This document shows positions 60 to 16,455 of a stretch of DNA of 23,252 nt, in pieces (positions within the stretch are counted from its first letter, which is position 1; every line of letters begins with the position of its first letter). Source of the stretch: an uncultured Myxococcales bacterium (GTDB taxonomy: Bacteria; Myxococcota_A; UBA9042; CAIXZC01). Under the pieces are notes generated by a model, which did not search any database, had not been told where the DNA came from, and was given only the letters and a program-made list of their open reading frames with translations. The stretch covers positions 1 to 23,252 of the forward strand of contig CAZVFX010000112.1 of NCBI GenBank assembly GCA_964626565.1. The letters are read 5' to 3'. The translations under genes were made by a program, and so were the position numbers.

Positions 60-2624
60 CTACTCGCACACCTTGAACAGGGTGACGGAGGAACCCGTAT
101 GGCCGGCCAAAACCAGGCTGGTGCCGTCGGGGGAGATGTCCATGCCTCGAGGGTTGAGGAAAGCCAGGTCGGGTGTTCCGGCTAGACCGCCCTGGCCGAA
201 TGCCAGCAGTGACAACTCGTTGGTCAGCGGATCCCGCGCAACCTGTGCGAGATACTTGCTGTCCACCAAATACAGCTGTCTGCCATCAGGCGAGTAGAGC
301 GCAATCTGCAAGGGACGACTGATGGCGGCGCCGTCGTACAACTGGCCTATGGTCGCCAGGTCCAGAGACTTCATGTTGCTCAGCACACCGTCGGGCTCCC
401 GGTCGAACACCACTGACGCATTGTCCCCCCCCCAATATCCGTCCTGCCCGGGAGCGCTGGTAGTGGCGAGCACCGCAAGCTGCCGTCCATCGGGCGAAAT
501 GGCAAGCCAATCGACTCGGCGGTCCGCACCGTAGAAACCTGCACCCGCCTCACCGGGGCTTGCAGGAACGGAGGTTACTACGTGGCCATCCTCATCCAGT
601 TCCAATAGCTCGAGTACTGGTGTTTCCGATTCCTCGTTGCCACCCGGCTCATCAACTCTCCCCCCAAGGTACGCAGTCAAACCATCGGGGGATACCGCTA
701 TCGCTTCCGTCTCCATCGTGTCCGGCAAAGGATATGCCTGGACGCCTGCCAACACCCCGTTTCCCACGGTCCGGTCGAACACTAACACGCTGCGACCGAA
801 GCCTGGCATCAGGCCGGCCGCGTACAGCCTCGCACCGTCGGGAGCAAGGGCAATGCTCGGGTCGTTAAGTCTCCCAGGGGGGATGTCTCCCGTGTCGAGA
901 CAATCCTCGACCTCAAGTTGCCACTTGCCTTCGGGACCCTCAGCGAAATAGGAAGCCACAATTTTTGGTTCGCAATCCTGACAATCCTGCAGAGTGTACA
1001 AAGCGTCCTTGGCCTGAGTCATGACCGGTTTGCCGTCAGTTGGCGGCCCAACCAGTGTCTCTGCCACCGATAGCTCGCCGCCGTCCCCGGTGCTCTCGAG
1101 TTGCACCATCGTCGATTCCGGTGATTCCGCTCCCCCTTTCCACGCTGACACGAGAGCACCACCATCATTGAGGGCAAAAACGTGCTTGGGCTCAAACAGA
1201 CCCTCCACCCCCTCGCCATCACCGTGACCGGCGAGGTCTGAGAGGGCCAGCGAGCCGGCGTCTCCGACTTCGAGAAATGCCACCTGCTCATCATGGGTGA
1301 CGAACCGGGTGCCTGACGAATCGACGGCGAGTTGGCCATCGCCGGGGAAGGTATTGAAGAACCAGAAGGTATCGGTCTCAGCTCCAATATTCAGGTGCGA
1401 AGCATACTCGATCTCCCCGCTGGCGGGGTCCCGATCAAGATAGAGTATGTAGTCGTCCATCATCGTCATGACCAACCCGGCGCCGTCGGCTACAATAGCG
1501 ACATCGTAGAGCACCGACCAACCTTCGAGCCCCAACTCCGGCGCTATCTGCTCAGACGAGAACACGTCGATAATTTCCAGCGCGCCGGATTCCGGATCTA
1601 CCGAAAACACGAGCACTGCCGCCATTGTCAAGAGATACGCACTCTCTCCATCCGGGGCGAAATACATGGGACCGCTCGGTTGAAGGTCCCCCACGCCCGC
1701 GACGGGCATCTCATCGACAGATTCCAAGTCGCCGGTCTGAGTGTCGAGTGAGAAGATGCGGATGCCAACGTCGCCCCAGAAGTTCTCGGGCCAAGCGTAA
1801 ACGTGCCGTCCATCAGGGGACAGGGCCGCCCGCGACCAATCCCCCAGGCCGCCGAACAAGTCCTCATCCTCCAGGGGGTAGCAGGCCAACTGCTGCACCT
1901 GCCCCGTGGCGATGTCCCTCGAGAACACCGACACCACCTCGTAATGTCGCAGGAAAAGTACCCCGTCGTCGTCACCCGACCAGATACCTTGCACGTACCC
2001 TCCGTGGACGTCACCGCAGTCAGGCTCAACAAACCAGTCAAGCTCCAAGGAGCCGTTAGAGTCGGAAGCAAAGGCGGTCAACCCTTCATTCGACCCGACC
2101 AGAACCTGGCTGCCATCCTTGCTCACCCAGATGTCCTGGGGCCAGGCCAGGGTATCCACTCCGTCGAAGCCGTCCCTAAAAGTCTGCAGGTGCTGAGCCT
2201 CACCAGTATCGGGAGACCAGTGCAGCACGGTCAGCGTGTGATCCCAGGAGGTCACGTACACAGTTTCCCCGTCAGGAGAGATGCCCACTTCGTACGGCCA
2301 GTCCATGCCGTCTATGCCTCCCTGCCCGTCGAAGATCGTGCCGACTGGTTCCAGCGGGACCGGCGTGCACATTGCGGGTAGCACTTCGGGAAGGAAGGCT
2401 GCATCGCCTGCGGCATCGTCTTCGACCAGTTCTTCTCCCGCGGGGAGGTCAGCCGGGGGAAGCTCTGCTGCCGCGTCCTTGACCTCCCCGGGGCCCACGT
2501 CACCAACGACGTCGCCGCTCGCGTCTGTAGCTGCGTTGCGCTTACTTCCGCTGCACGCACACAGGACAAAGACCAGGAAGACCACGGTGAAAGAGAGAAG
2601 GTACTTCACCCCGGGTGCTCTCAT
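60..2624 (-). CDS. Secreted beta-propeller repeat lipoprotein (YVTN/PD40/lactonase-like blades), 854 aa
   Basis: Signal peptide with lipobox-like FVLCAC|SG. At least 8 repeats of the [ILV]SPDG..(Y|L)(V|L) blade motif (ISPDGETVYVTS, LSPDGRHVYAW, APDGESAYLL, LAPDGARLYAAG, VSPDGLTAYLGG, ISPDGRQLAVLA, YSPDGRQLYLVD, ISPDGTSLVLAG). AGGAG RBS 7 nt upstream of the ATG. Stop TAG at 60-62. Confidence 0.7.
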   Translation of the reverse strand: MRAPGVKYLLSFTVVFLVFVLCACSGSKRNAATDASGDVVGDVGPGEVKDAAAELPPADLPAGEELVEDDAAGDAAFLPEVLPAMCTPVPLEPVGTIFDGQGGIDGMDWPYEVGISPDGETVYVTSWDHTLTVLHWSPDTGEAQHLQTFRDGFDGVDTLAWPQDIWVSKDGSQVLVGSNEGLTAFASDSNGSLELDWFVEPDCGDVHGGYVQGIWSGDDDGVLFLRHYEVVSVFSRDIATGQVQQLACYPLEDEDLFGGLGDWSRAALSPDGRHVYAWPENFWGDVGIRIFSLDTQTGDLESVDEMPVAGVGDLQPSGPMYFAPDGESAYLLTMAAVLVFSVDPESGALEIIDVFSSEQIAPELGLEGWSVLYDVAIVADGAGLVMTMMDDYILYLDRDPASGEIEYASHLNIGAETDTFWFFNTFPGDGQLAVDSSGTRFVTHDEQVAFLEVGDAGSLALSDLAGHGDGEGVEGLFEPKHVFALNDGGALVSAWKGGAESPESTMVQLESTGDGGELSVAETLVGPPTDGKPVMTQAKDALYTLQDCQDCEPKIVASYFAEGPEGKWQLEVEDCLDTGDIPPGRLNDPSIALAPDGARLYAAGLMPGFGRSVLVFDRTVGNGVLAGVQAYPLPDTMETEAIAVSPDGLTAYLGGRVDEPGGNEESETPVLELLELDEDGHVVTSVPASPGEAGAGFYGADRRVDWLAISPDGRQLAVLATTSAPGQDGYWGGDNASVVFDREPDGVLSNMKSLDLATIGQLYDGAAISRPLQIALYSPDGRQLYLVDSKYLAQVARDPLTNELSLLAFGQGGLAGTPDLAFLNPRGMDISPDGTSLVLAGHTGSSVTLFKVCE
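425..433. repeat. Homopolymeric C9 tract (G9 on the coding strand) inside the beta-propeller lipoprotein CDS, encoding W-G-G
   Basis: ttgtCCCCCCCCCaatat. The coding strand reads tgg ggg ggg gac. It is the longest homopolymer in the window. Confidence 0.9.
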
Positions 2625-7166: not shown

Positions 7167-7195
7167 TCTGGTTGCCGATCCGGAAGGAGGAAACC

Positions 7196-8764
7196 ATGTT
7201 GTCGAGTCCTAGCAGAGCGAGGTGGGTCTTCGTGGTCTGCCTTTGCGCGGGCCTGGCAGGGATGTTGGTTTCGCACCCCGAGTCCCATGCCGCACGAATC
7301 AAATTCGGCCCGCTGGAAGTGGAGACCGACGACGTCGCACCCGCGGAAGAAGACCCCGCGGCAACACCGGACGCTCCGTCAGAAACGGAAGAAGCCCCGA
7401 CCCCTCCCCCGGAATTGAAGAGTGAATCTCCCAAACCGCTGGACTTCGGCGGCGGCGAAGGCAAGATCGTCTACCACGCGCATCTTACCGACGTTGTGGA
7501 CCTGGGCATAGCCCCGTTTCTGGAGCGCGTCATTGCGGATGCTGAGGACGCGGGGGCAGCGGTACTGGTAGTGGAAATCGACACTCCGGGCGGCAGGGTG
7601 GATGCCGCGGTGCAGATCAAGGATGTACTGCTGGAAAGCAAGATTCCCACTATCGCGTTTATCAACAAACAAGCCATATCAGCCGGTGCGCTCATCGCTC
7701 TGGCTCACGACTACATTGTCTGGTCCACCGGCGGAACCATGGGCGCGGCGACACCGATCCAGATGGGTGGCGGCGGCGGAGCCGAGCCGGTCGAAGAGAA
7801 GATGGTTTCCTACATGCGTGGCGTGATGAGTGCCACCGCGGAAGCCAAGGGAAGGGACGGATTCGTGGCCACCGCAATGGTGGATGACACCATCGACCTG
7901 CCCGAATTCGCGCCGGAAGGCCAGCTTCTGACTTCCACTTTCACGCAGGCTGAAGCGCTGGGGCTGCTGGATGGCAGAGCCGATAGCTTTGAGGAGCTGC
8001 TGGCCACCTGCAACCTCACCGGCGCCGAAGTGATTGAGCCCGAGGTCAACTGGGCGGAGAAAATCGCCCGCTTCCTGACCCACCCCATCGTCAGTTCCCT
8101 GCTCATGACCATCGGCATGCTGGGGATCCTCATGGAGCTCTACAGCCCCGGTTTCGGCATTACCGGTATCATCGGGCTGTTGTCGCTGCTCCTCTTCTTC
8201 GGTGGCCACATGATCGTGCACATCGCAGGGATCGAGGAGATCGCTCTGTTCCTGCTGGGAATCGTGCTGATAATTGTCGAAGTGGCGGTGATTCCGGGCT
8301 TTGGATTTGTTGGCGTAGCCGGCGCGCTGGCCATCGCAGTGAGTATGATCCTGGCCCTCGTAGGGATACGTGTGGACATCGCGTGGGCTTCCGGGCTGCT
8401 CGTCCGGGCACTGGGCCAGTTCTCCATTGCAGTTGTCCTCACCGCAGTGACAATGATCCTTGGGGTTCGATTCCTGCCCTCGGTAGGGCCCGTGCGCGGC
8501 CTCATCCTCACCAGTTCACTCAGGAAAGAGGACGGGTTCATTGCGACGGACCCCAAAATCAGCGACGCCTTACTGGGTCTCACAGGTGTCGCGCTCACCG
8601 ACCTGCGCCCCGGCGGCAAGGCACGCCTTGACGGCAAGAAGGTCGATGTGGCGGCATATGGCGAGTTCATCACCCGCGGCGAGCAGGTGAAAGTGATCGA
8701 GGTTGATGGACCCAGCGTAACGGTCGAGCGTTTGGGCGATGGCGGAGGTGACGATGCTGAGTGA
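7196..8764 (+). CDS. NfeD-like membrane-bound ClpP-class serine protease, long form (YqeZ-like)
   Basis: Signal/TM segment, acidic Pro-rich linker, then a ClpP/NfeD protease core (LVVEIDTPGGRVDAAVQI, FINKQAISAGALIAL), multiple TM helices and a C-terminal OB-fold beta domain. GGAGG RBS 5 nt upstream of the ATG at 7196; the ORF-track TTG at 7172 is rejected. Confidence 0.85.
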   Translation: MLSSPSRARWVFVVCLCAGLAGMLVSHPESHAARIKFGPLEVETDDVAPAEEDPAATPDAPSETEEAPTPPPELKSESPKPLDFGGGEGKIVYHAHLTDVVDLGIAPFLERVIADAEDAGAAVLVVEIDTPGGRVDAAVQIKDVLLESKIPTIAFINKQAISAGALIALAHDYIVWSTGGTMGAATPIQMGGGGGAEPVEEKMVSYMRGVMSATAEAKGRDGFVATAMVDDTIDLPEFAPEGQLLTSTFTQAEALGLLDGRADSFEELLATCNLTGAEVIEPEVNWAEKIARFLTHPIVSSLLMTIGMLGILMELYSPGFGITGIIGLLSLLLFFGGHMIVHIAGIEEIALFLLGIVLIIVEVAVIPGFGFVGVAGALAIAVSMILALVGIRVDIAWASGLLVRALGQFSIAVVLTAVTMILGVRFLPSVGPVRGLILTSSLRKEDGFIATDPKISDALLGLTGVALTDLRPGGKARLDGKKVDVAAYGEFITRGEQVKVIEVDGPSVTVERLGDGGGDDAE

Positions 8765-9245
8765 GGTAATCGTACCCCTGGTCTGTATGGTGTTGGGGTT
8801 GGCGCTCATATTCATCGAGATCGCCATCGTGCCCGGCTTCGGGCTGGTGGGCATCGCGGGAGGCGTTCTGCTGGTCGGCGGTGCGATAGTGGTTTGGAGC
8901 ACTGCGGGAGCTGCCTGGGGATTGGCGTCTCTGCTGGTAGCCTGCCCGTTGTTCGTGGCCGCCCTCTGGATCTTTTTCAAGAGCGGCGCGTCCAACCGCC
9001 TGGTTCAGCATGAGAAGATAACCGGCGATTCGTCCGCGGTCGCGGAATTGACGTTCCTCTCCGGTCGAACGGGCGTGGCAAAGTCACCGCTTCGGCCGTC
9101 GGGCATAGCGGAAATTGAAGGCAAACGATACGATGTCGTAACCGACGGCGGCGAGTACGTCGAGAAAGGCGAGGCCGTCGTGGTTGTGCGCATCGACACA
9201 AACAGCATAGTTGTAGAGATAACTGAAATCAACGCGGAGGGTTGA
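8754..9245 (+). CDS. NfeD short form (membrane anchor plus OB-fold), YuaF/YqfB-like partner of flotillin
   Basis: Two TM helices followed by the C-terminal beta-barrel region [37 protein letters not shown] 5 nt upstream of the ATG at 8754. Overlaps the preceding stop by 11 nt, suggesting translational coupling. Confidence 0.7.
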
Positions 9246-9247
9246 GA

Positions 9248-10243
9248 ATGCTTCTAGCAGCGGGTTTGTTCAAGGGTTCGATGGTCATCGGCATAGTGGT
9301 GGTCGTAGCTCTCATACTTTTCTTCTATTTTGTACCCGTGGGCCTCTGGATCGCAGCCCGCTTTTCCGGTGCGCCGGTGGGCCTCTTCGGGCTCGTCGCC
9401 ATGCGGCTGAGACGAGTTTCCCCCGCCGCGGTGGTCAACCCTCTCATCAACGCGACCAAAGCCGGGCTGGAACTCACCACCAACAACCTCGAGTCCCACT
9501 ATCTGGCGGGCGGTAACGTGGCCGCGGTCATAAATGCGCTTATCTCTGCCAGCAAGGCGAATATCAGTCTTGACTTCAACAAGGCGGCGGCCATCGACCT
9601 GGCTGGACGTGACGTATTCGAAGCGGTGCAGATGAGCGTGAATCCGCGGGTCATCACTACCCCCAAAGTAACGGCCATGGCCAAAGACGGTATCCAGCTC
9701 ACCGCGGTGGCCAGAGTTACCGTGCGGGCCAACATCGACAAGCTGGTCGGTGGTGCGGGTGAAGAGACCATCCTTGCCCGCGTCGGCGAGGGTATCGTCA
9801 CCACCATCGGTTCATCAGCCACTCACAAGGACGTACTGGAGAACCCGGACAGTATCTCAAAGGGCGTACTGCAGAAGGGGCTGGACGCGGGCACCGCATT
9901 CGAGATCCTCTCAATTGACATCGCGGACGTTGACGTGGGCGCCAACGTAGGCGCCAAGCTGCAGACCGAGCAGGCCGAAGCCGACAAGCAGATCGCCCAG
10001 GCCAAGGCAGAGAGCCGCCGGGCCATGGCAGTTGCTGCCGAGCAGGAGATGAAGGCCAAAGTGCAGGAGATGCAGGCCAAAGTGGTGGAAGCCGAAGCCC
10101 AGGTGCCGCTGGCCATGGCCGAAGCTTTCCGCCAGGGCAACCTCGGTGTCATGGACTACGCCAACTTCCGGAACGTGGTGGCGGACACCAAGATGCGGGA
10201 CGGAATCTCGCACATTACCGATGAACCCGACAACACTAAGTAG
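9248..10243 (+). CDS. floA: Flotillin-like protein FloA (SPFH/band-7 family, UPF0365/YqfA)
   Basis: Near-collinear identity to B. subtilis FloA as I remember it: [151 protein letters not shown]; ATG 2 nt after the nfeD-short stop. Confidence 0.9.
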
Positions 10244-10409
10244 GGGAGTTTGAAAATGACCGCCAGGCGTCGGAGAGAGCCGGTCCCGGAGCGCACCGTG
10301 CAACTTGCCAGTGTGTTCCGCGACCGGCGGCGGTTCCTCTCTCGCTTTGTGTGGTCGGTGGTGTTGTCGCCGCCGTTGGCAAGACGCGGTGTAACTCGAG
10401 GAGGCCCTC

Positions 10410-11672
10410 GTGCTGCCGGAAAATAGCCTCCAGCTCATGAAGGGCTTCTGGGACCGCGCAGAAGTCATAATCGTCATTCTCATTATCGTTATTGCCGATG
10501 TTGTCTGGCCCATCATCAAGAAACGGCGCCAGAAACAACAGATGGCTCAGCAACCCATGGAGCATGTTCCCGTGGCCGAGCCGGCGCCACAGTTCGAGGC
10601 GGTAACGCCGGTCACTACCCCGGTGCGCCGCCCTACCCCGGCGAAGAAGCCGGTCCGTCAACCAGCCAAGAACAATCTCCATACCTTGACCAACGAGTTG
10701 TTCGCACCGCTGGATGCGCACCCGCAACTCTCCCGGGCCATGCGCCTGCAGGAGCTTAGCAGTCGCCTGAACCAGGCGGTGCGAGACCAGCGTTTCCCGC
10801 TTACTCTGGCCGACACCGCAATCTCGGTTTCTACTGTTCTTTGCGCCCGCGTGCCGGGCTATCGTGCCGAACTCCTCCAGGCCTCCGGAGTGGGCGCCGG
10901 CTCGGTGGAGATCTCCAGTCTCGACGATCTGGTGAACAATCCTGACGCGCTGGCCATCGGCTGCATCGATGCGCTGATACATGATGCGCTCGGTCTTACC
11001 CTGTTGGGCCCCGCTTACGCAGCCCTCCGCCTCCGCTCTCTGGTCGAGGAGGGCAAAGAGAGCGTGATGCACCTCAATCTCGCCCGCGGCGGCTCCATCG
11101 CACTTGAGCCCCCCGCGGTACTCCTGAAATCGGTCTACACCGACACGCTCAGGAGTCTGGGATACAAGGCTAATCTGCCTGAACTCAAGACCCGCACAGG
11201 CTACGTTCCGGAGCCTCAGCAGTTCACTCTGCTCATCGGCGGAATCGGACGGCAGATCAATTTGCCCGTCCCCCTCCATCCAGCCCAGGTTGCCCTGGCC
11301 GGCGTCATGAGCAAGCTCGTGACCAGTCGACTCGAAGTTCTGGACAACGTTTCCTTCGAGAAGGCAGCGCTGAATGCGGGCCTTCAAATCCGCTACGAGC
11401 GGGCGAGCAGGCTGCGCAGGGAACTTGAGAAAGGCGCGGTTCCCTCGCGTCTGGACGTCGAACACCTGCTGGTACTGGCGGATATCGCAGCCGACAACGG
11501 AATGGCCGCGTATCAGGAGGCGTTGGCCACTATGGTGTCCCGGGCTCGCAAAGCGAGACGAAGAACCGTCGCACCGCAACAGGGCGGACTTCTCCCCATG
11601 ACCCCTGGCGCAGTCGTGGAGGGCCTCATTCTTGCGGAAGTGATGCAAAGAAAGTCCGGCCGGCCAGTTTGA
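10410..11672 (+). CDS. Hypothetical membrane-anchored protein (N-terminal TM, Pro-rich linker, about 300-aa helical domain), co-operonic with floA and alr
   Basis: GAGGAGG RBS 5 nt upstream of the GTG start. GC3-rich codon usage on the + strand, whereas the overlapping - strand 470-aa ORF is R/H/G/Q-rich antisense junk. TM helix AEVIIVILIIVIADVVWPII followed by KKRRQKQQ. I recognised no catalytic motif. Confidence 0.6.
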   Translation: MLPENSLQLMKGFWDRAEVIIVILIIVIADVVWPIIKKRRQKQQMAQQPMEHVPVAEPAPQFEAVTPVTTPVRRPTPAKKPVRQPAKNNLHTLTNELFAPLDAHPQLSRAMRLQELSSRLNQAVRDQRFPLTLADTAISVSTVLCARVPGYRAELLQASGVGAGSVEISSLDDLVNNPDALAIGCIDALIHDALGLTLLGPAYAALRLRSLVEEGKESVMHLNLARGGSIALEPPAVLLKSVYTDTLRSLGYKANLPELKTRTGYVPEPQQFTLLIGGIGRQINLPVPLHPAQVALAGVMSKLVTSRLEVLDNVSFEKAALNAGLQIRYERASRLRRELEKGAVPSRLDVEHLLVLADIAADNGMAAYQEALATMVSRARKARRRTVAPQQGGLLPMTPGAVVEGLILAEVMQRKSGRPV

Positions 11673-11683
11673 AGGTGTAGATA

Positions 11684-12820
11684 ATGGACCTCACGTGGGT
11701 AGAGATCTCCCGCCAGAGCCTGGCGCACAACATGAACCAGTTCAGAACCCTTGCGCCCAAGTCGCTGCTGGCCCCTGTCGTCAAGGCCAATGCGTACGGC
11801 CACGGCCTGGTTCCCGTGGCCCGGATCTTATGTGATGAGGGTGCGGATTGGCTATGCGTCAACGCGGTCTACGAAGCCGAGATACTACGCCGGGAAGGAA
11901 TCTCTCTACCGCTCTACCTGCTAGGCTATCTTGCGCCGGGCGACTACGAAGCCGCGGTCGAACTGGGGCTGAAAGTGGTCGCCTATGACCCTGATACGAT
12001 CCATGGACTCGGGAAAGCCGCGGCCGCCAGGGGCGCGACGGTGCCGGTCCACGTGAAAGTTGAAACCGGAAACAACCGGCAAGGTCTGCCGCCGGAGCAA
12101 GCGGTACAGCTCGCCCGGCTCATCGCGACCACTCCGGGAGTCGAATTCGAGGGGCTATCCAGTCACTATGCCGATATTGAAGACACCACCGACCACGCGT
12201 TCGCAAAGGGCCAGCTAGAAGTGTTTCTGAACACCGTCGCCACCCTGGAGCAGCAAGGCGTTCCGGCCAGGGTGAAGAACTTCAGCAATAGCGCGGCCGC
12301 CATCCTCTGGGCCGAGACCCACTTTGACCTCGTACGCGCAGGCATTTCCCTATATGGAATGTGGCCGTCGAAGGAGACGTGCGTGAGCGCGGTCCTGCTC
12401 AACCGGGAGAAGCCGGTGTTGGAACCGGTACTCACGTGGAAGACGGTGGTAGCCCAGGTGAAACAGGTGGCCGCGGGTGAGTTCGTGGGCTACGGCCGCA
12501 CCTTCCGCACGACTCACACCACCCGCCTAGCGGTGCTGCCTATCGGCTACTACGACGGCTACGACCGGGGACTCAGCAACCTCGGGCATGTGCTCATAGA
12601 CGGCCATATCGCGCCGGTGAGAGGACGCGTGTGTATGAATATGGTGATGGTGGACGTATCCGACGTTCCCTCGGTGGAAGCGGGCCGGGAGGTGGTGCTC
12701 CTGGGCCAGAGCCTCGACAAGGCTGTTACCGCGGAGAATATTGCGGATTGGAGCAACACCATCAACTACGAAGTGACCACCCGCATCAACGAGCGCATCC
12801 CCCGCCGGATAGTAGACTAG
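11684..12820 (+). CDS. alr: Alanine racemase
   Basis: PLP-lysine motif VVKANAYGHG near the N-terminus. Length 378 aa. The C-terminal domain ends ...YEVTTRINERIPRR, typical of Alr. GAAGGTG RBS. Confidence 0.9.
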   Translation: MDLTWVEISRQSLAHNMNQFRTLAPKSLLAPVVKANAYGHGLVPVARILCDEGADWLCVNAVYEAEILRREGISLPLYLLGYLAPGDYEAAVELGLKVVAYDPDTIHGLGKAAAARGATVPVHVKVETGNNRQGLPPEQAVQLARLIATTPGVEFEGLSSHYADIEDTTDHAFAKGQLEVFLNTVATLEQQGVPARVKNFSNSAAAILWAETHFDLVRAGISLYGMWPSKETCVSAVLLNREKPVLEPVLTWKTVVAQVKQVAAGEFVGYGRTFRTTHTTRLAVLPIGYYDGYDRGLSNLGHVLIDGHIAPVRGRVCMNMVMVDVSDVPSVEAGREVVLLGQSLDKAVTAENIADWSNTINYEVTTRINERIPRRIVD

Positions 12821-12852
12821 AGAGACGAACGGGCCGCCTCCCCCGGCTGCAC

Positions 12853-12880
12853 TTGACTGTGGCACCCGCATGCCTATCTT
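12853..12880 (+). promoter_or_regulatory. Candidate promoter for the Cys-rich repeat/redoxin gene (-35 TTGACT, 16 nt spacer, -10 TATCTT)
   Basis: TTGACT gtggcacccgcatgcc TATCTT, about 30 nt upstream of the ATG at 12912. Confidence 0.3.
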
Positions 12881-12911
12881 TGTCACAGTAACCTGGATTG
12901 GGAGCATTATT

Positions 12912-14528
12912 ATGAAATCGCAGAAACTCAGAGTACCTCTTCTCGCTTTCGCCCTGCTGGTCAGCGCCGGCTGTTCCGGCACCGGTTCCGACAAAGACGT
13001 TTCGGCGACGCCTGATATGGCGGAAGAGCTGGGCGGTGGCGAGGACCTGGCGTCAACGGACACCCTGGACTCCACCGAACAGGACATGGCGCCGGCGCCT
13101 GATCTGACTGCGGATGTCGCCGACGTACCTGCTCCGGACCTGCTCGATGAGGAGTTGCCCCCGGAAATAGTCCCGGCCGAGGTGCTGGAGGAAATTGAAG
13201 AGACCGCGCCAGAGCTACCGTGCGACGAAACCTGCACCGAATGCGGCGTCGCCAACGGATGCGGCGACATCTGTTTCGGCGATGACCTGTGCGACGATGA
13301 TAACCTCTGCACCACCGACTCCTGCCAACCCGATGAAGGGTGCGTCTTTGCCGCCAACACCATCCCCTGCAATGACGGTGACGCTTGTACCTCAAGCGAC
13401 ACATGCGCCGACGGCGAGTGTGTCGGGGCCTCCCTTGATTGCGACGACGGCAACCCGTGTACCGACGATTCCTGCGATGCTGACTCAGGCTGCGTCTTCG
13501 AGAACAACACGGAACCGTGCGACGACAACAGCGATTGCACTATGGAGGACGTTTGCGATGCCGGAGAATGCATGGGCGCGGGCAGCCTTGAATGTGATGA
13601 CGCCAACCCGTGCACCGTTGACGTCTGTCTGGACGACGGTGGCTGCGAATACGAGCCCGTCGACGGGCCGTGCAGCGATGACGACGTCTGCACCGCCGGC
13701 GACCTCTGCCTGGCGGGCGAATGCGTGCCGGGCGAGCCGGTAGTCTGCAGCGACGACAACCCGTGCACCACCGATTCTTGCGCCCCGGACGCAGGCTGCG
13801 TTTTCACAAACAACGACTCCGCGTGCAGCGATGCCAACCCGTGCACACTGGCCGACGCCTGCCTGGACGGCGCGTGCGTCGGCGAGCCGGTTGAGTGCGC
13901 CCCGGGCGAATACTGCCTCGACGGCGCTTGTGTCTGCGCAGACCCCTGCGGCGAAGCAGAGTGCGGCGAGGACGCGTGTGGGAGTTCTTGCGGTGTGTGC
14001 GGAGATGGACTCGCTTGCGTCGATGGGACGTGCGTTGAGGCCGGCCCCGAATGCCCGCCGCCGCCACCGTACGGTACGAGTATCGGCAAGACTCTCCCCA
14101 ACGCAACGCTCCTCGATTGCGACGGAGTTGAGTACTCCATCCACGATCTCTGCCCCTCCAAAGCGGCGTGGATATTTCTGTATACAGGATGGTGATATAG
14201 CTGCAAGATGACCGTCAGTTCGACGGCCGAGCCTGTATATCAGAACTACAAGGACCAGGGATTCCAAGCGTACATCGTGCTGCTGGAGGACGCCACCGGC
14301 GCACCGGCAACCGCAGAATTGTGTACAGCCATCCGTGATCAGAACGGGCTCACCATGCCGGTTCTCTACGATCCCGACGCAGTTATACCCTACAACCTCA
14401 ACCTCGTCGGCGGTCCCGCAAACGACTACAGCATCATGATCGATGAGGGAGGAGTGCTGGAAGGCAAGAAGAAGGGACTAAGCAAGTCGATGCTGGAAAT
14501 GGAGATTGAAATGCTGCTCTCCGATTGA
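12912..14528 (+). CDS. Candidate selenoprotein. Lipoprotein with an acidic linker, four ~50-aa Cys-rich repeats and a C-terminal TlpA/ResA-like thioredoxin-fold domain, translated through the in-frame TGA at 14193-14195 as Sec (active site W-U-Y-S-C)
   Basis: ORFs 12870..14195 and 14208..14528 are in the same frame, separated only by the TGA. The junction reads ...GKTLPNATLLDCDGVEYSIHDLCPSKAAWIFLYTGW-[TGA]-YSCKMTVSS..YQNYKDQGFQAYIVLL..GLTMPVLYDPD..YNL..GPANDYSIMIDEGGVLEGKKKG. This is collinear with the TlpA/ResA/DsbE redoxin fold (G.P.F.L.D..G..v.L.D.KGK.v.lNFWA.WC.PC....P.L...Y..Y...G...v.v.......fv...g..fPvl.D.......Yg....P..flID..G.i), so the TGA falls exactly on the first Cys of the CxxC active site. 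The upstream part alone would lack the second Cys and the downstream part alone would lack the active site. The real start is probably the ATG at 12912 (MKSQKLRVPLLAFALLVSAGC, lipobox) rather than 12870. Confidence 0.55.
14194..14241 (+). promoter_or_regulatory. Bacterial SECIS-like imperfect hairpin immediately 3' of the in-frame UGA
   Basis: Base pairs read by eye. Outer stem 14194-14199 GAUAUA with 14236-14241 UAUAUC; this includes the G and A of the UGA. 14200G-14233C, 14203G-14232C, 14204C-14231G, 14209U-14229G (wobble), 14210G-14228C. Apical stem 14212-14216 CCGUC with 14222-14226 GACGG. Apical loop AGUUC at 14217-14221, which is +24 to +28 from the U of the UGA, and contains a GU. Confidence 0.35.
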
Positions 14529-14544
14529 CATCGCCCTTCCATCC

Positions 14545-14572
14545 TTGATCCAATCAGCCCAGCCTCTATAAT
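14545..14572 (+). promoter_or_regulatory. Strong sigma70-like promoter candidate for the FloT-like flotillin gene (-35 TTGATC, 16 nt spacer, -10 TATAAT)
   Basis: TTGATC caatcagcccagcctc TATAAT, 35 nt upstream of GGAGG-N6-ATG at 14608. An additional TTGACA at 14525-14530 overlaps the redoxin stop codon. Confidence 0.45.
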
Positions 14573-14607
14573 GCCTCCGAACGCATCGCCCACACCGGAG
14601 GTCAACG

Positions 14608-16455
14608 ATGTTTCAAATCCTGCTAGCCATAGTCTTCACCGTGTTTGCTTTTGTGTTGCCCAGCTACGTTCCCCGCTCCCTCCAGAGTGCGGGCACTTCC
14701 TGGGGAATCAGAATTGTCGGCCTGCTGCTGGCCCTCTTCATGATTGTGTCTACCAGTTTCGTCATCGTTGATTCGGACAAGGTCGGTCACCTCAAGCGGG
14801 TGTACTTCGGCGATCCCATGCCTGCTGGACGCATCGTGGCAGTGAGGGGAGAAAAAGGTCCCCAGGCAGAGGTGCTGGCGCCGGGGTTCCATTTTCGGCC
14901 GCTCATTCGGGTGCTTTACAAGTTCGAGGAGAAGCCGGTTGTAAAGGTGCCCGAGGGATCCTACGCCATAGTAACCGCACTGGATGGCAGGCCGCTCAGA
15001 GCAGGTCAATACCTGGCAGACCCCTGGCCCGAGGACGAGGTGGAAAGATATGTGGACGCACTCTACTTCATGGGTGAGGGACAGGAACAGGCCCGCGGCC
15101 AGAAAGGCCCCCAACTTACCGTGCTGCCTCCCGGAGACTACCGCTTGAACCGCTATCTTTTCGCCATTGATCTCGACCACCAGGCCGTGGACATCCCCAT
15201 CGGTTTCGTCGGGGTCGTCAAGAGCAACGTGGGCGAGGAGTACGCGGGCGAGTCGATTGTCCCCGATTCCATCGTCGAAGCCTTCCACAAGGCTTCCAGG
15301 CTGCAGGCTCGCAAGGCCAAGCGGGATGGCATCGATCTGGCCCTGCTCACCAAGGAGGAGGCAAGACAGTTGGCGCTGGAGGCACTGTCCGTCCCCCTCG
15401 TCCCCAGAGGCAACCGGGGAGTGTGGACTGCGGTGCTCACTCCCGGAAGGTACTACTTCAACGAAAAGGCGTACCAGGTGACCCATGTGGACACACGTAT
15501 CCAGACCTGGCCCTACATCGGCGGATTCAAGCGCCGATGGGTCGACCTGGAGTTGAAGGAAGACGGCTCAGTCGTGCAGACTGCGAGAGAAGAAGAGGTC
15601 CCGGTAATGGAGCAGGCGGCAGACACCGCCGTGGTTTGTCGAGTCGAAGGCTGGGACGTGTTTCTCGATTCCCGGGTGCTGGTACAGGTTACCCCGGAGA
15701 ACGCGCCTTACGTTGTCGCGTCCGTGGGCGGCATTCGCAACGTCGAGGACAAGATCATCACTCCCGCCTATCGCAGCGTGCTGAGAAATGTCGTCAGCGA
15801 CAAGGAGCGCAAGGTGCTGGAGCTACTCTACCAGCGGGACATGCTTGAGAGACTGGTGGAAGAAGCGATCATTCCGGAAGGCCTGAAGGCAGGCGTCATC
15901 ATTCGGGAGATCCGGTTCGGTGACCCGGTGGTTCCCCCTGAACTCCTGGTACCGGGTAAGCGCAAGCAACTCGCCGAGCAGATGGAGGAGACCTTCACCA
16001 AGGAAAAGGAATCCCAGCTCAAGCGTATCGAGACGGAAAAAGCCCGGGCCGAAGCGAACCGGCAGGATGAGCTGATGAAGGCCGAAATTCGCCGCAAAGC
16101 GGCCTCGGAGATCAAGGAAGAGCAGAAGCTGCTCGGAGAAGGTGAGAAATTGAAACTCCAGGCCATTGCGGAAGGACAGAAGGCCCAGATGGACGTTCTT
16201 GGTCAGCAAAAGACCTACGAATTGGCCAGACTGAAAATGGTTCTGGAATCAGCGGTCCGCAATCCCAACATTGTACGAGTGCCCAGCGTTCTGGTGAGCA
16301 GCGACGGAAGCGGCCTGGAAGGCGCCGCGGCAATTCTGGGGGCGAGCAACCTCACTTTCGGACTGCAGGAGCTTGACTCAACTCCGGCCTCGGCACCAAC
16401 CGGCGCGCCCGCACTCAGGCCTACTCCTGTTCCCGCCCCCGCCCTCGCACCGTAG
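14608..16455 (+). CDS. Flotillin/YqiK-family SPFH-domain membrane protein (FloT-like), 615 aa
   Basis: Two N-terminal TM helices. SPFH-type start VIVDSDKVGHLKRVYFG...APGFHFRPLIRVL. Downstream SPFH helices, then a charged coiled-coil region rich in EA/K/Q repeats (KEKESQLKRIETEKARAEANRQDELMKAEIRRKAASEIKEEQKLLGEGEKLKLQAIAEGQKAQ). A terminal NPNIVRVPSVLVSSDGSG box resembles the flotillin C-terminal ...ITVVDTGGSG box. C-terminal Pro/Ala tail. Confidence 0.65.
   Translation: MFQILLAIVFTVFAFVLPSYVPRSLQSAGTSWGIRIVGLLLALFMIVSTSFVIVDSDKVGHLKRVYFGDPMPAGRIVAVRGEKGPQAEVLAPGFHFRPLIRVLYKFEEKPVVKVPEGSYAIVTALDGRPLRAGQYLADPWPEDEVERYVDALYFMGEGQEQARGQKGPQLTVLPPGDYRLNRYLFAIDLDHQAVDIPIGFVGVVKSNVGEEYAGESIVPDSIVEAFHKASRLQARKAKRDGIDLALLTKEEARQLALEALSVPLVPRGNRGVWTAVLTPGRYYFNEKAYQVTHVDTRIQTWPYIGGFKRRWVDLELKEDGSVVQTAREEEVPVMEQAADTAVVCRVEGWDVFLDSRVLVQVTPENAPYVVASVGGIRNVEDKIITPAYRSVLRNVVSDKERKVLELLYQRDMLERLVEEAIIPEGLKAGVIIREIRFGDPVVPPELLVPGKRKQLAEQMEETFTKEKESQLKRIETEKARAEANRQDELMKAEIRRKAASEIKEEQKLLGEGEKLKLQAIAEGQKAQMDVLGQQKTYELARLKMVLESAVRNPNIVRVPSVLVSSDGSGLEGAAAILGASNLTFGLQELDSTPASAPTGAPALRPTPVPAPALAP

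Follow-up and report, generated by a model that had tools for sequence, protein, structure and literature searches.

Within a stretch of 23,252 nucleotides (nt) from an uncultured Myxococcales bacterium (contig CAZVFX010000112.1, analysed over its whole length and hereafter called the window), one gene contains an in-frame UGA codon (14193-14195, +) that is followed by a short RNA hairpin at 14210-14228 (core 14212-14226, loop AGUUC). With high confidence, this hairpin can be regarded as a bacterial selenocysteine insertion sequence (SECIS). Judging from comparative sequence evidence, the UGA is very probably read as selenocysteine (Sec) at the active site of a secreted enzyme of the thioredoxin-like type. 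The product would accordingly be a selenoprotein of the UxxC Prx-like/TlpA-like kind, and the uncultured bacterium that encodes it probably belongs to the Myxococcota. The UGA stands in the place of the catalytic cysteine (Cys) of homologous proteins and is conserved among relatives, a covarying hairpin occurs at a fixed distance behind it in the UGA forms only, and UGA is an ordinary stop codon elsewhere in the window.

The complete gene, read through the UGA, occupies positions 12912-14528 (+) in a single frame that is open from 12870 to 14528 with one internal TGA. An open reading frame (ORF) starting from an upstream alternative ATG at 12870 closes at the TGA of 14193-14195 (12870-14195, +), and past this codon the frame remains open up to a second TGA at 14526-14528. 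The true start is likely ATG 12912, the second ATG, at which a lipoprotein-type signal (MKSQKLRVPLLAFALLVSAGC) begins, yielding the lipobox LVSAGC. Behind this signal lie approximately 280 residues of Cys-rich Dicty_CTDC repeats (Pfam PF00526, 8e-15) and an AhpC-TSA/Redoxin domain of the TlpA/ResA-like thioredoxin fold (14082-14456, +), which is interrupted by the UGA and was identified by Pfam, NCBIfam and PDB matches. The Pfam match to the full read-through product (PF00578, 4e-8) spans the TGA; with the isolated domain, both PF00578 (3e-9) and PF08534 (5e-8) exceeded the gathering score and likewise spanned the UGA. The NCBIfam match of the redoxin domain to ResA was weak, and its closest PDB entries in a phmmer search were 2yp6/4hqz and ResA 4nmu. 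Far from being Cys-poor, as a preliminary description of this DNA had assumed, the read-through protein contains 54 Cys among 538 residues (10%).

The sequence around the UGA, AAWIFLYTGW-[TGA]-YSC, represents a thioredoxin-fold WCxxC motif with the stop codon at the nucleophilic first Cys, so that the UGA (codon 442) is the proposed Sec codon and position 1 of U-Y-S-C. The resolving Cys of this UxxC motif is encoded by UGC at 14202-14204 (+) and belongs to an invariant column of the alignment of homologs (A2). The W-U-Y-S-C of the window aligns with the WCPxC of Cys homologs, 18 of which carry the first Cys of the motif opposite the UGA, and phmmer places the UGA site against WCGPC in 2yp6/4hqz and WCKPC in 4nmu. 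Besides the U/CxxC motif, Cys at domain positions 25, 36 and 93 was invariant in the Sec and Cys forms alike in alignment A2, which suggests that these residues may form structural disulfides in an exported protein. A sequencing error at the TGA was ruled out, because the locus is identical in six independent assemblies. Genome-wide reassignment of UGA was also excluded, since TGA is the normal stop of 6 of the 14 genes of the window, the selenoprotein gene included.

Scans of genome and metagenome collections with the domain alignment produced 32 loci, in which the motif codon was TGA in 11 cases and TGC or TGT in 18; the genome matches were metagenome-assembled genomes (MAGs) of Myxococcales, Bradymonadia and "Deltaproteobacteria". 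A profile of the protein part that follows the TGA detected approximately 60 clusters of domain-less fragments of about 100 residues (P0011-P0074), some labelled Myxococcota, and in the contigs of all eight fragment clusters that were examined an in-frame TGA was present at the same motif position. These roughly 60 clusters show that the Sec form is widespread. Altogether, TGA was found at the motif in the loci L001, L008, L009, L018, L020, L023, L025, L031-33, L035, L036 and L041-47. One of these relatives, L001, is a close syntenic ortholog that is 70% identical across the gene.

The apical stem of the proposed SECIS is formed by the 5' arm CCGUC (14212-14216, +) and the 3' arm GACGG (14222-14226, +), both of which are supported by folding, covariation and a covariance-model match at 14208-14230. 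They enclose the loop AGUUC (14217-14221, +), in which SelB presumably contacts G14218 and U14219 and which conforms to the family consensus RGUYN. An outer pair, G14210-C14228, lies beyond an A14211/C14227 mismatch, giving either 5 contiguous base pairs (bp) or 6 pairs across the mismatch. The loop extends from +24 to +28, counted here and below from the U of the UGA, and 21 nt (14196-14216) separate it from the codon, a distance within the 16-37 nt published for bacterial SECIS elements (PMC10778597). The preliminary description had proposed a 48-nt stem-loop comprising this hairpin and a basal stem, at the spacing of bacterial Sec insertion; all of its named pairings, together with the apical helix and the GU-containing 5-nt loop at 24-28 nt, are indeed present in the sequence.

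A hairpin rule was defined as a stem of at least 5 bp and a loop of 4-6 nt that contains GU and starts at +19 to +27. Hairpins of this kind were found in 12 of 13 Sec forms and in none of 18 Cys forms (Fisher 9e-8). In a sample collected after the rule had been set, 5 of 6 distinct new Sec forms carried it, with the register unchanged (P = 4e-7, given the background rate). The true terminator of the gene, the UGA at 14526-14528 (+), is followed by no hairpin matching the rule, and the next 60 nt fold with only -1.4 kcal/mol.

Covariation provides further support for the apical stem. Among 14 aligned sequences, both sides had changed in 6 of the 7 stem pairs. Of the alignment cells of the stem, 90.8% were paired, compared with 66.9% in shuffled alignments, none of 500 shuffles reaching the observed value. 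When the register was slid, at most 59.5% of cells were paired and the covariation score did not exceed 0.28, against 0.658 observed; covariation was also computed on an earlier alignment of 8 sequences. The loop G was invariant (14 of 14 family members), the U following it was present in 13 of 14, and the loop started at +24 in 12 of 14. Moreover, the residues encoded by the stem arms vary from member to member (TVSST, VASSV, VAGSA, FAGQA) and the AGUU of the L018 loop is read in a different frame, so the constraint acts on the RNA and not on the peptide. When the window is compared with L001, the 17-codon segments that have diverged least anywhere in the gene begin at codons 436-442 (2-3 differences compared with a mean of 14.3), and synonymous codons were identical in 14 of 16 cases in this region versus 218 of 373 gene-wide (P = 0.018). 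One of the changes between the two sequences, CCT to CCA, falls at an unpaired position.

RNAalifold found no structure in the Cys forms. Applied to a plain MAFFT alignment of 12 Sec forms, it yielded only a 3-pair compromise, because the hairpins of L018 and of the L032-36 subgroup sit in shifted registers, and this alignment was replaced by register-anchored alignments and a covariance model. A second helix, CUGC 8-11/GCAG 38-41, was rejected as a by-product of protein conservation, since it shows no covariation and occurs only where the peptide is C...AEQ; it is absent from the window.

Several loci show variations of the same arrangement. L044 (1471-1508) appears to be a remnant copy, reading W-TGA-PTRK with the resolving Cys replaced by Arg; upstream it shows no homology to the N-terminal half of the redoxin fold, yet a SECIS-like hairpin is kept (19 bits with the covariance model R1 described below). 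In L047 (1423-1460, W-TGA-PPC), the hairpin is at the same place with the loop CGGGC, the sole case without GU in the family. The divergent L031 (2355-2400, L-TGA-PAC) has a candidate hairpin of 3-4 bp at the expected distance, together with a stronger hairpin immediately after the UGA, at +3 to +17.

The covariance model R1 was trained on six relatives only, with the window and L001 left out. Searched against both strands of the whole window, its best match was the predicted site (14208-14230), full length and ungapped, with 14.4 bits and an E value of 0.14. R1 also recovered the predicted sites of L001 and of 6 of 7 loci fetched later, and gave no match at the corresponding position in the Cys forms. 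Approximately 8 unrelated matches of at least equal score occurred in 330 kb of searched strand, or about 2e-5 per position. Four top off-site matches were inspected (L013 4517, L024 1048, L022 2549, and window 1209-1238 on the reverse strand) and were considered chance GC-rich hairpins, because none has an in-frame TGA upstream; the last of them, the second-best match in the window (13.4 bits), lies inside an intact ORF of 854 residues. On the other hand, R1 failed to detect the subgroup L032-36, and therefore one model does not cover all SECIS variants even among TlpA-like selenoproteins.

Taken as a single sequence, the window element is much less conspicuous. When 14193-14242 was folded alone, the two-helix structure was obtained exactly as described earlier (-13.2 kcal/mol, z score -1.63), and 15 of 200 shuffles of this segment folded equally well; the apical hairpin by itself reached -7.2 kcal/mol (z score -1.6). 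Hairpins of the rule type followed 3.6% of codon positions in the ORFs of the window, and helices of 6 bp or more involving the codon were found at 14%. In this sequence taken alone, neither the apical nor the basal element clearly exceeds its chance rate, so that the single sequence is only suggestive, as the preliminary description had also stated.

Several further points weigh against the identification of a SECIS. The hairpin of the window is the weakest of its family (z score -1.6), and in the 76-nt context suggested in the preliminary description the minimum free energy structure is an alternative fold (z score +0.85). Rfam gave no match, either for the window at the gathering threshold or for 14150-14300 at a permissive threshold, and the absolute R1 score of the window site is low. 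The hairpin rule was written, and the register of L018 chosen, after the sequences had been viewed. Because several of the Sec forms are closely related, independent events are fewer than the counts suggest. None of selA, selB, selD and tRNA-Sec was found in the 23-kb window or the fetched loci, and a tRNA-Sec search of the window and 34 loci returned no result. Finally, no member of the selenoprotein class in question is known to have been verified biochemically. We nevertheless place high confidence in the apical hairpin as a SECIS, on the strength of the comparative evidence given above.

A related question is whether the entire 48-nt two-helix structure is the functional unit, with UGAUAUA/UAUAUCA sequestering the UGA as in E. 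coli fdhF and the apical hairpin being insufficient alone. The basal helix joins GAUAUA (14194-14199) to UAUAUC (14236-14241) and extends to 7 bp through U14193-A14242, its 3' arm being UAUAUCA (14236-14242, +), and the complementarity noted earlier for the G and A of the UGA is thus present in the sequence. The exact folding of the isolated 50-mer into this structure is in favor of such a unit, as is the retention of the helix in L001, where a change of GTA to GTG turns a U-A pair into a compatible U-G. In addition, three TAT codons for Tyr (14181-14183, 14196-14198 and 14238-14240) cluster near the UGA and the basal arms, although TAT is the rarer codon in the genes of the window (TAC:TAT 137:50), and the fdhF fold likewise pairs the A of its UGA. 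However, the basal helix is lineage-specific: it is limited to the window and L001, no helix that pairs the UGA exists in any other Sec-form lineage, and codon-including helices are frequent in the background. Compensatory changes in orthologs, which had been suggested as a check, support the apical stem and give no such support to the basal one. It is also established for fdhF that only the upper hairpin at the correct distance is needed (Liu et al. 1998, cited in PMC4607533). The basal stem was therefore rejected as a conserved element, being confined to the window and L001 and not above chance, and a strict requirement for both helices seems rather unlikely. There is still room for a lineage-specific accessory role, to which the TAT clustering and the U-G pair of L001 would point; the clustering may reflect selection for an AU-rich basal helix or coincidence.

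The alternatives that deny a SECIS altogether are less probable. If the TGA were a real stop, the locus would be either a pseudogene or a Cys-rich lipoprotein gene followed by a gene of 106 residues starting from ATG 14208, and the hairpin would be a coincidence or a local attenuator. All public gene calls split the locus in this way, Sec machinery was not seen nearby, and the hairpin alone is statistically not unusual. Against this, a single Pfam domain spans the TGA, because of which neither half would be a complete fold. ATG 14208 is AAG in L001, and therefore the downstream piece is not an independent gene. In about 20 diverged loci whose flanks are open and conserved, the TGA coincides precisely with the position of the catalytic Cys, unlike in pseudogenes, six independent assemblies are identical, and the hairpin covaries and is restricted to TGA forms. 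A genuine stop thus appears highly improbable. It could also be argued that the hairpin owes its conservation to something other than SelB, either as a by-product of the peptide (V-A-S/G-S-V-A-E) or because it supports SelB-independent near-cognate read-through with Trp or Cys. The region is coding and adjoins the active site, so that constraint at the protein level does exist, and downstream structures can promote stop-codon read-through in other systems. However, both arms change together while the encoded residues change too, the loop motif of L018 lies in another frame, and the Cys homologs, which are under the same protein constraints, lack the hairpin in all 18 cases. An invariant loop G, a GU and a fixed distance are hallmarks of SelB-type SECIS elements (PMC4607533), which SelB-independent read-through does not explain, and UxxC redoxins are already a recognised selenoprotein class (PMC1794560, PMC2398784, PMC13188914). 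We consider this explanation improbable, if less so than a real stop.

Given a SECIS at 14210-14228, SelB binding, delivery of Sec-tRNA and incorporation of selenium may be inferred from the established mechanism of E. coli fdhF. With the ribosome at the UGA (14193-14195), the hairpin, 14-16 nt downstream, would lie immediately outside the channel through which the mRNA enters, where its loop G14218-U14219 and its stem could be bound by the C-terminal domain of SelB carrying GTP and Sec-tRNA(Sec). SelB would thereby be tethered at the A site, and the UGA would be decoded as Sec instead of a stop. The ribosome would then melt the hairpin while translating T-V-S-S-T-A. The predicted product is an exported lipoprotein of approximately 538 residues with a C-terminal TlpA/ResA-like redoxin domain and a U-Y-S-C active site.

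The public annotation of this locus wrongly splits a single selenoprotein gene in two. Gene calls cut it into an ORF of 441 or 427 residues and another of 106 residues (14208-14528), the latter of which is stored in public databases as a separate protein; its start as chosen by the callers, ATG 14208, lies within the 5' flank of the SECIS. The neighborhood (7172-16455), which includes membrane-microdomain genes, consists of NfeD, FloA, a hypothetical gene, alanine racemase, the selenoprotein gene and a Band_7 protein, and L001 keeps this gene order over the span of its contig, from FloA to the gene after the selenoprotein. Two antisense ORFs overlap the selenoprotein gene (12527-14206 on the reverse strand, 559 residues; 13485-14267 on the reverse strand, 260 residues). 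Their translations are of low complexity, Ser/Pro/Ala-rich or Arg/Ala-rich, as is typical of GC-rich DNA, and no evidence was found that they are genes.

These results correct a systematic annotation error, in which dozens of relatives are recorded as a truncated Cys-rich protein and an orphan "hypothetical protein" of 100 residues; mis-annotation of selenoprotein genes in such families is a known problem (PMC13326102). They also add a covariation-backed case and a usable small covariance model to the repertoire of bacterial SECIS elements, known to be difficult to model (PMC12013277), and suggest that uncultured marine Myxococcota-like bacteria use Sec in an exported redoxin with a lipoprotein anchor. 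A bolder possibility, which we regard as tentative and on balance doubtful, is that this family represents a distinct Myxococcota-like SECIS class, with an RGUYN pentaloop at +24, a 7-bp stem and a co-adapted SelB, along with undescribed exported, lipid-anchored fusions of a Sec-redoxin and Cys-rich repeats. If so, the Sec-redoxin would perhaps handle disulfides in its own repeats or in extracytoplasmic substrates. The understanding of the Sec insertion mechanism remains unchanged.

Among known systems, E. coli fdhF is the natural reference. The fdhF SECIS sequence used for the comparison was confirmed to be 100% identical to annotated fdhF in 5,419 of 5,426 genomes. In both cases an in-ORF stem-loop directly follows the Sec UGA, the apical hairpin is short, and the loop contains G-U; in the lineage of the window, a predicted lower helix touches the UGA as well. 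The overall stability is similar (-14.0 kcal/mol in the window versus -14.9 in fdhF), and the modest stability of the window element is no argument against function, because it is comparable to that of this validated SECIS. The earlier concern that a 5-bp apical stem is too short proved unfounded for the same kind of reason, since the minimal apical hairpin of fdhF is weaker (-4.2 versus -7.2 kcal/mol). The geometries differ, however. The fdhF loop GGUC lies at +21 to +24 behind an 11-nt spacer, whereas the AGUUC loop of the window is at +24 to +28, with G at 26 and a spacer of 14-16 nt. The features specific to fdhF (11-nt spacer, GGUC loop with G23/U24, bulged U) are therefore not reproduced in the window, whose element lies one codon further out. 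Of the fdhF arrangement ascribed to the window in the preliminary description, the lower helix, restricted to this lineage, and the spacing are not supported as general features. The two elements have no sequence relationship, and that of the window lies in a redoxin gene and not in one for formate dehydrogenase. Close to the fdhF geometry are the distant TlpA-like Sec forms L032, L033, L035 and L036, which resemble the window in having the UGA at the same motif position and a 6-bp hairpin (L032 1150-1180, L033 3109-3139, L035 3115-3145, L036 2174-2204) and differ from it in the sequence GUCCGA-GGUC-UCGGAC at +14 to +29, with a loop identical to that of fdhF (GGUC, +20 to +23) and an 11-nt spacer.

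The window element also agrees with bacterial SECIS elements in general, being an in-ORF stem-loop 3' of a UGA at an appropriate distance, with a hairpin and loop G, covariation and a Sec/Cys pair. The minimal SECIS core has been described as comprising about 5-6 bp in an apical hairpin whose loop holds a conserved G (PMC4607533). The Epsilonproteobacterial model of the same study is similar to the present family in its hairpin of 5-6 bp shortly after the UGA, its invariant loop G and its stem covariation, as well as in the ability of a small covariance model to recover unseen members at about 11-20 bits. It differs in that the window family belongs to another lineage and has an RGUYN loop, a stem of up to 7-8 bp and a position fixed at +24.

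With regard to the protein, UxxC Prx-like and TlpA-like redoxins have long been recognised as predicted selenoproteins, notably in Deltaproteobacteria-type lineages and marine metagenomes (PMC1794560, PMC2398784, PMC13188914), and a 2026 review considers such families "predicted with high confidence" (PMC13188914). The window protein resembles Prx-like 1 and 3 and the thiol-disulfide isomerase-like cd02966 family of Zhang and Gladyshev in its PF00578/PF08534 fold with UxxC in place of CxxC, and shares with the Prx-like/TlpA-like UxxC families the many Cys homologs and the SECIS directly after the UGA. The window subfamily departs from those families in its fusion to a long Cys-rich Dicty_CTDC region that follows a lipoprotein signal, in three additional invariant Cys of the domain, and in its occurrence in uncultured Myxococcota/Bradymonadia-like MAGs. 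What is particular here is thus the fusion to a Cys-rich repeat lipoprotein and the family-specific SECIS consensus, while the mechanism itself is ordinary and known.

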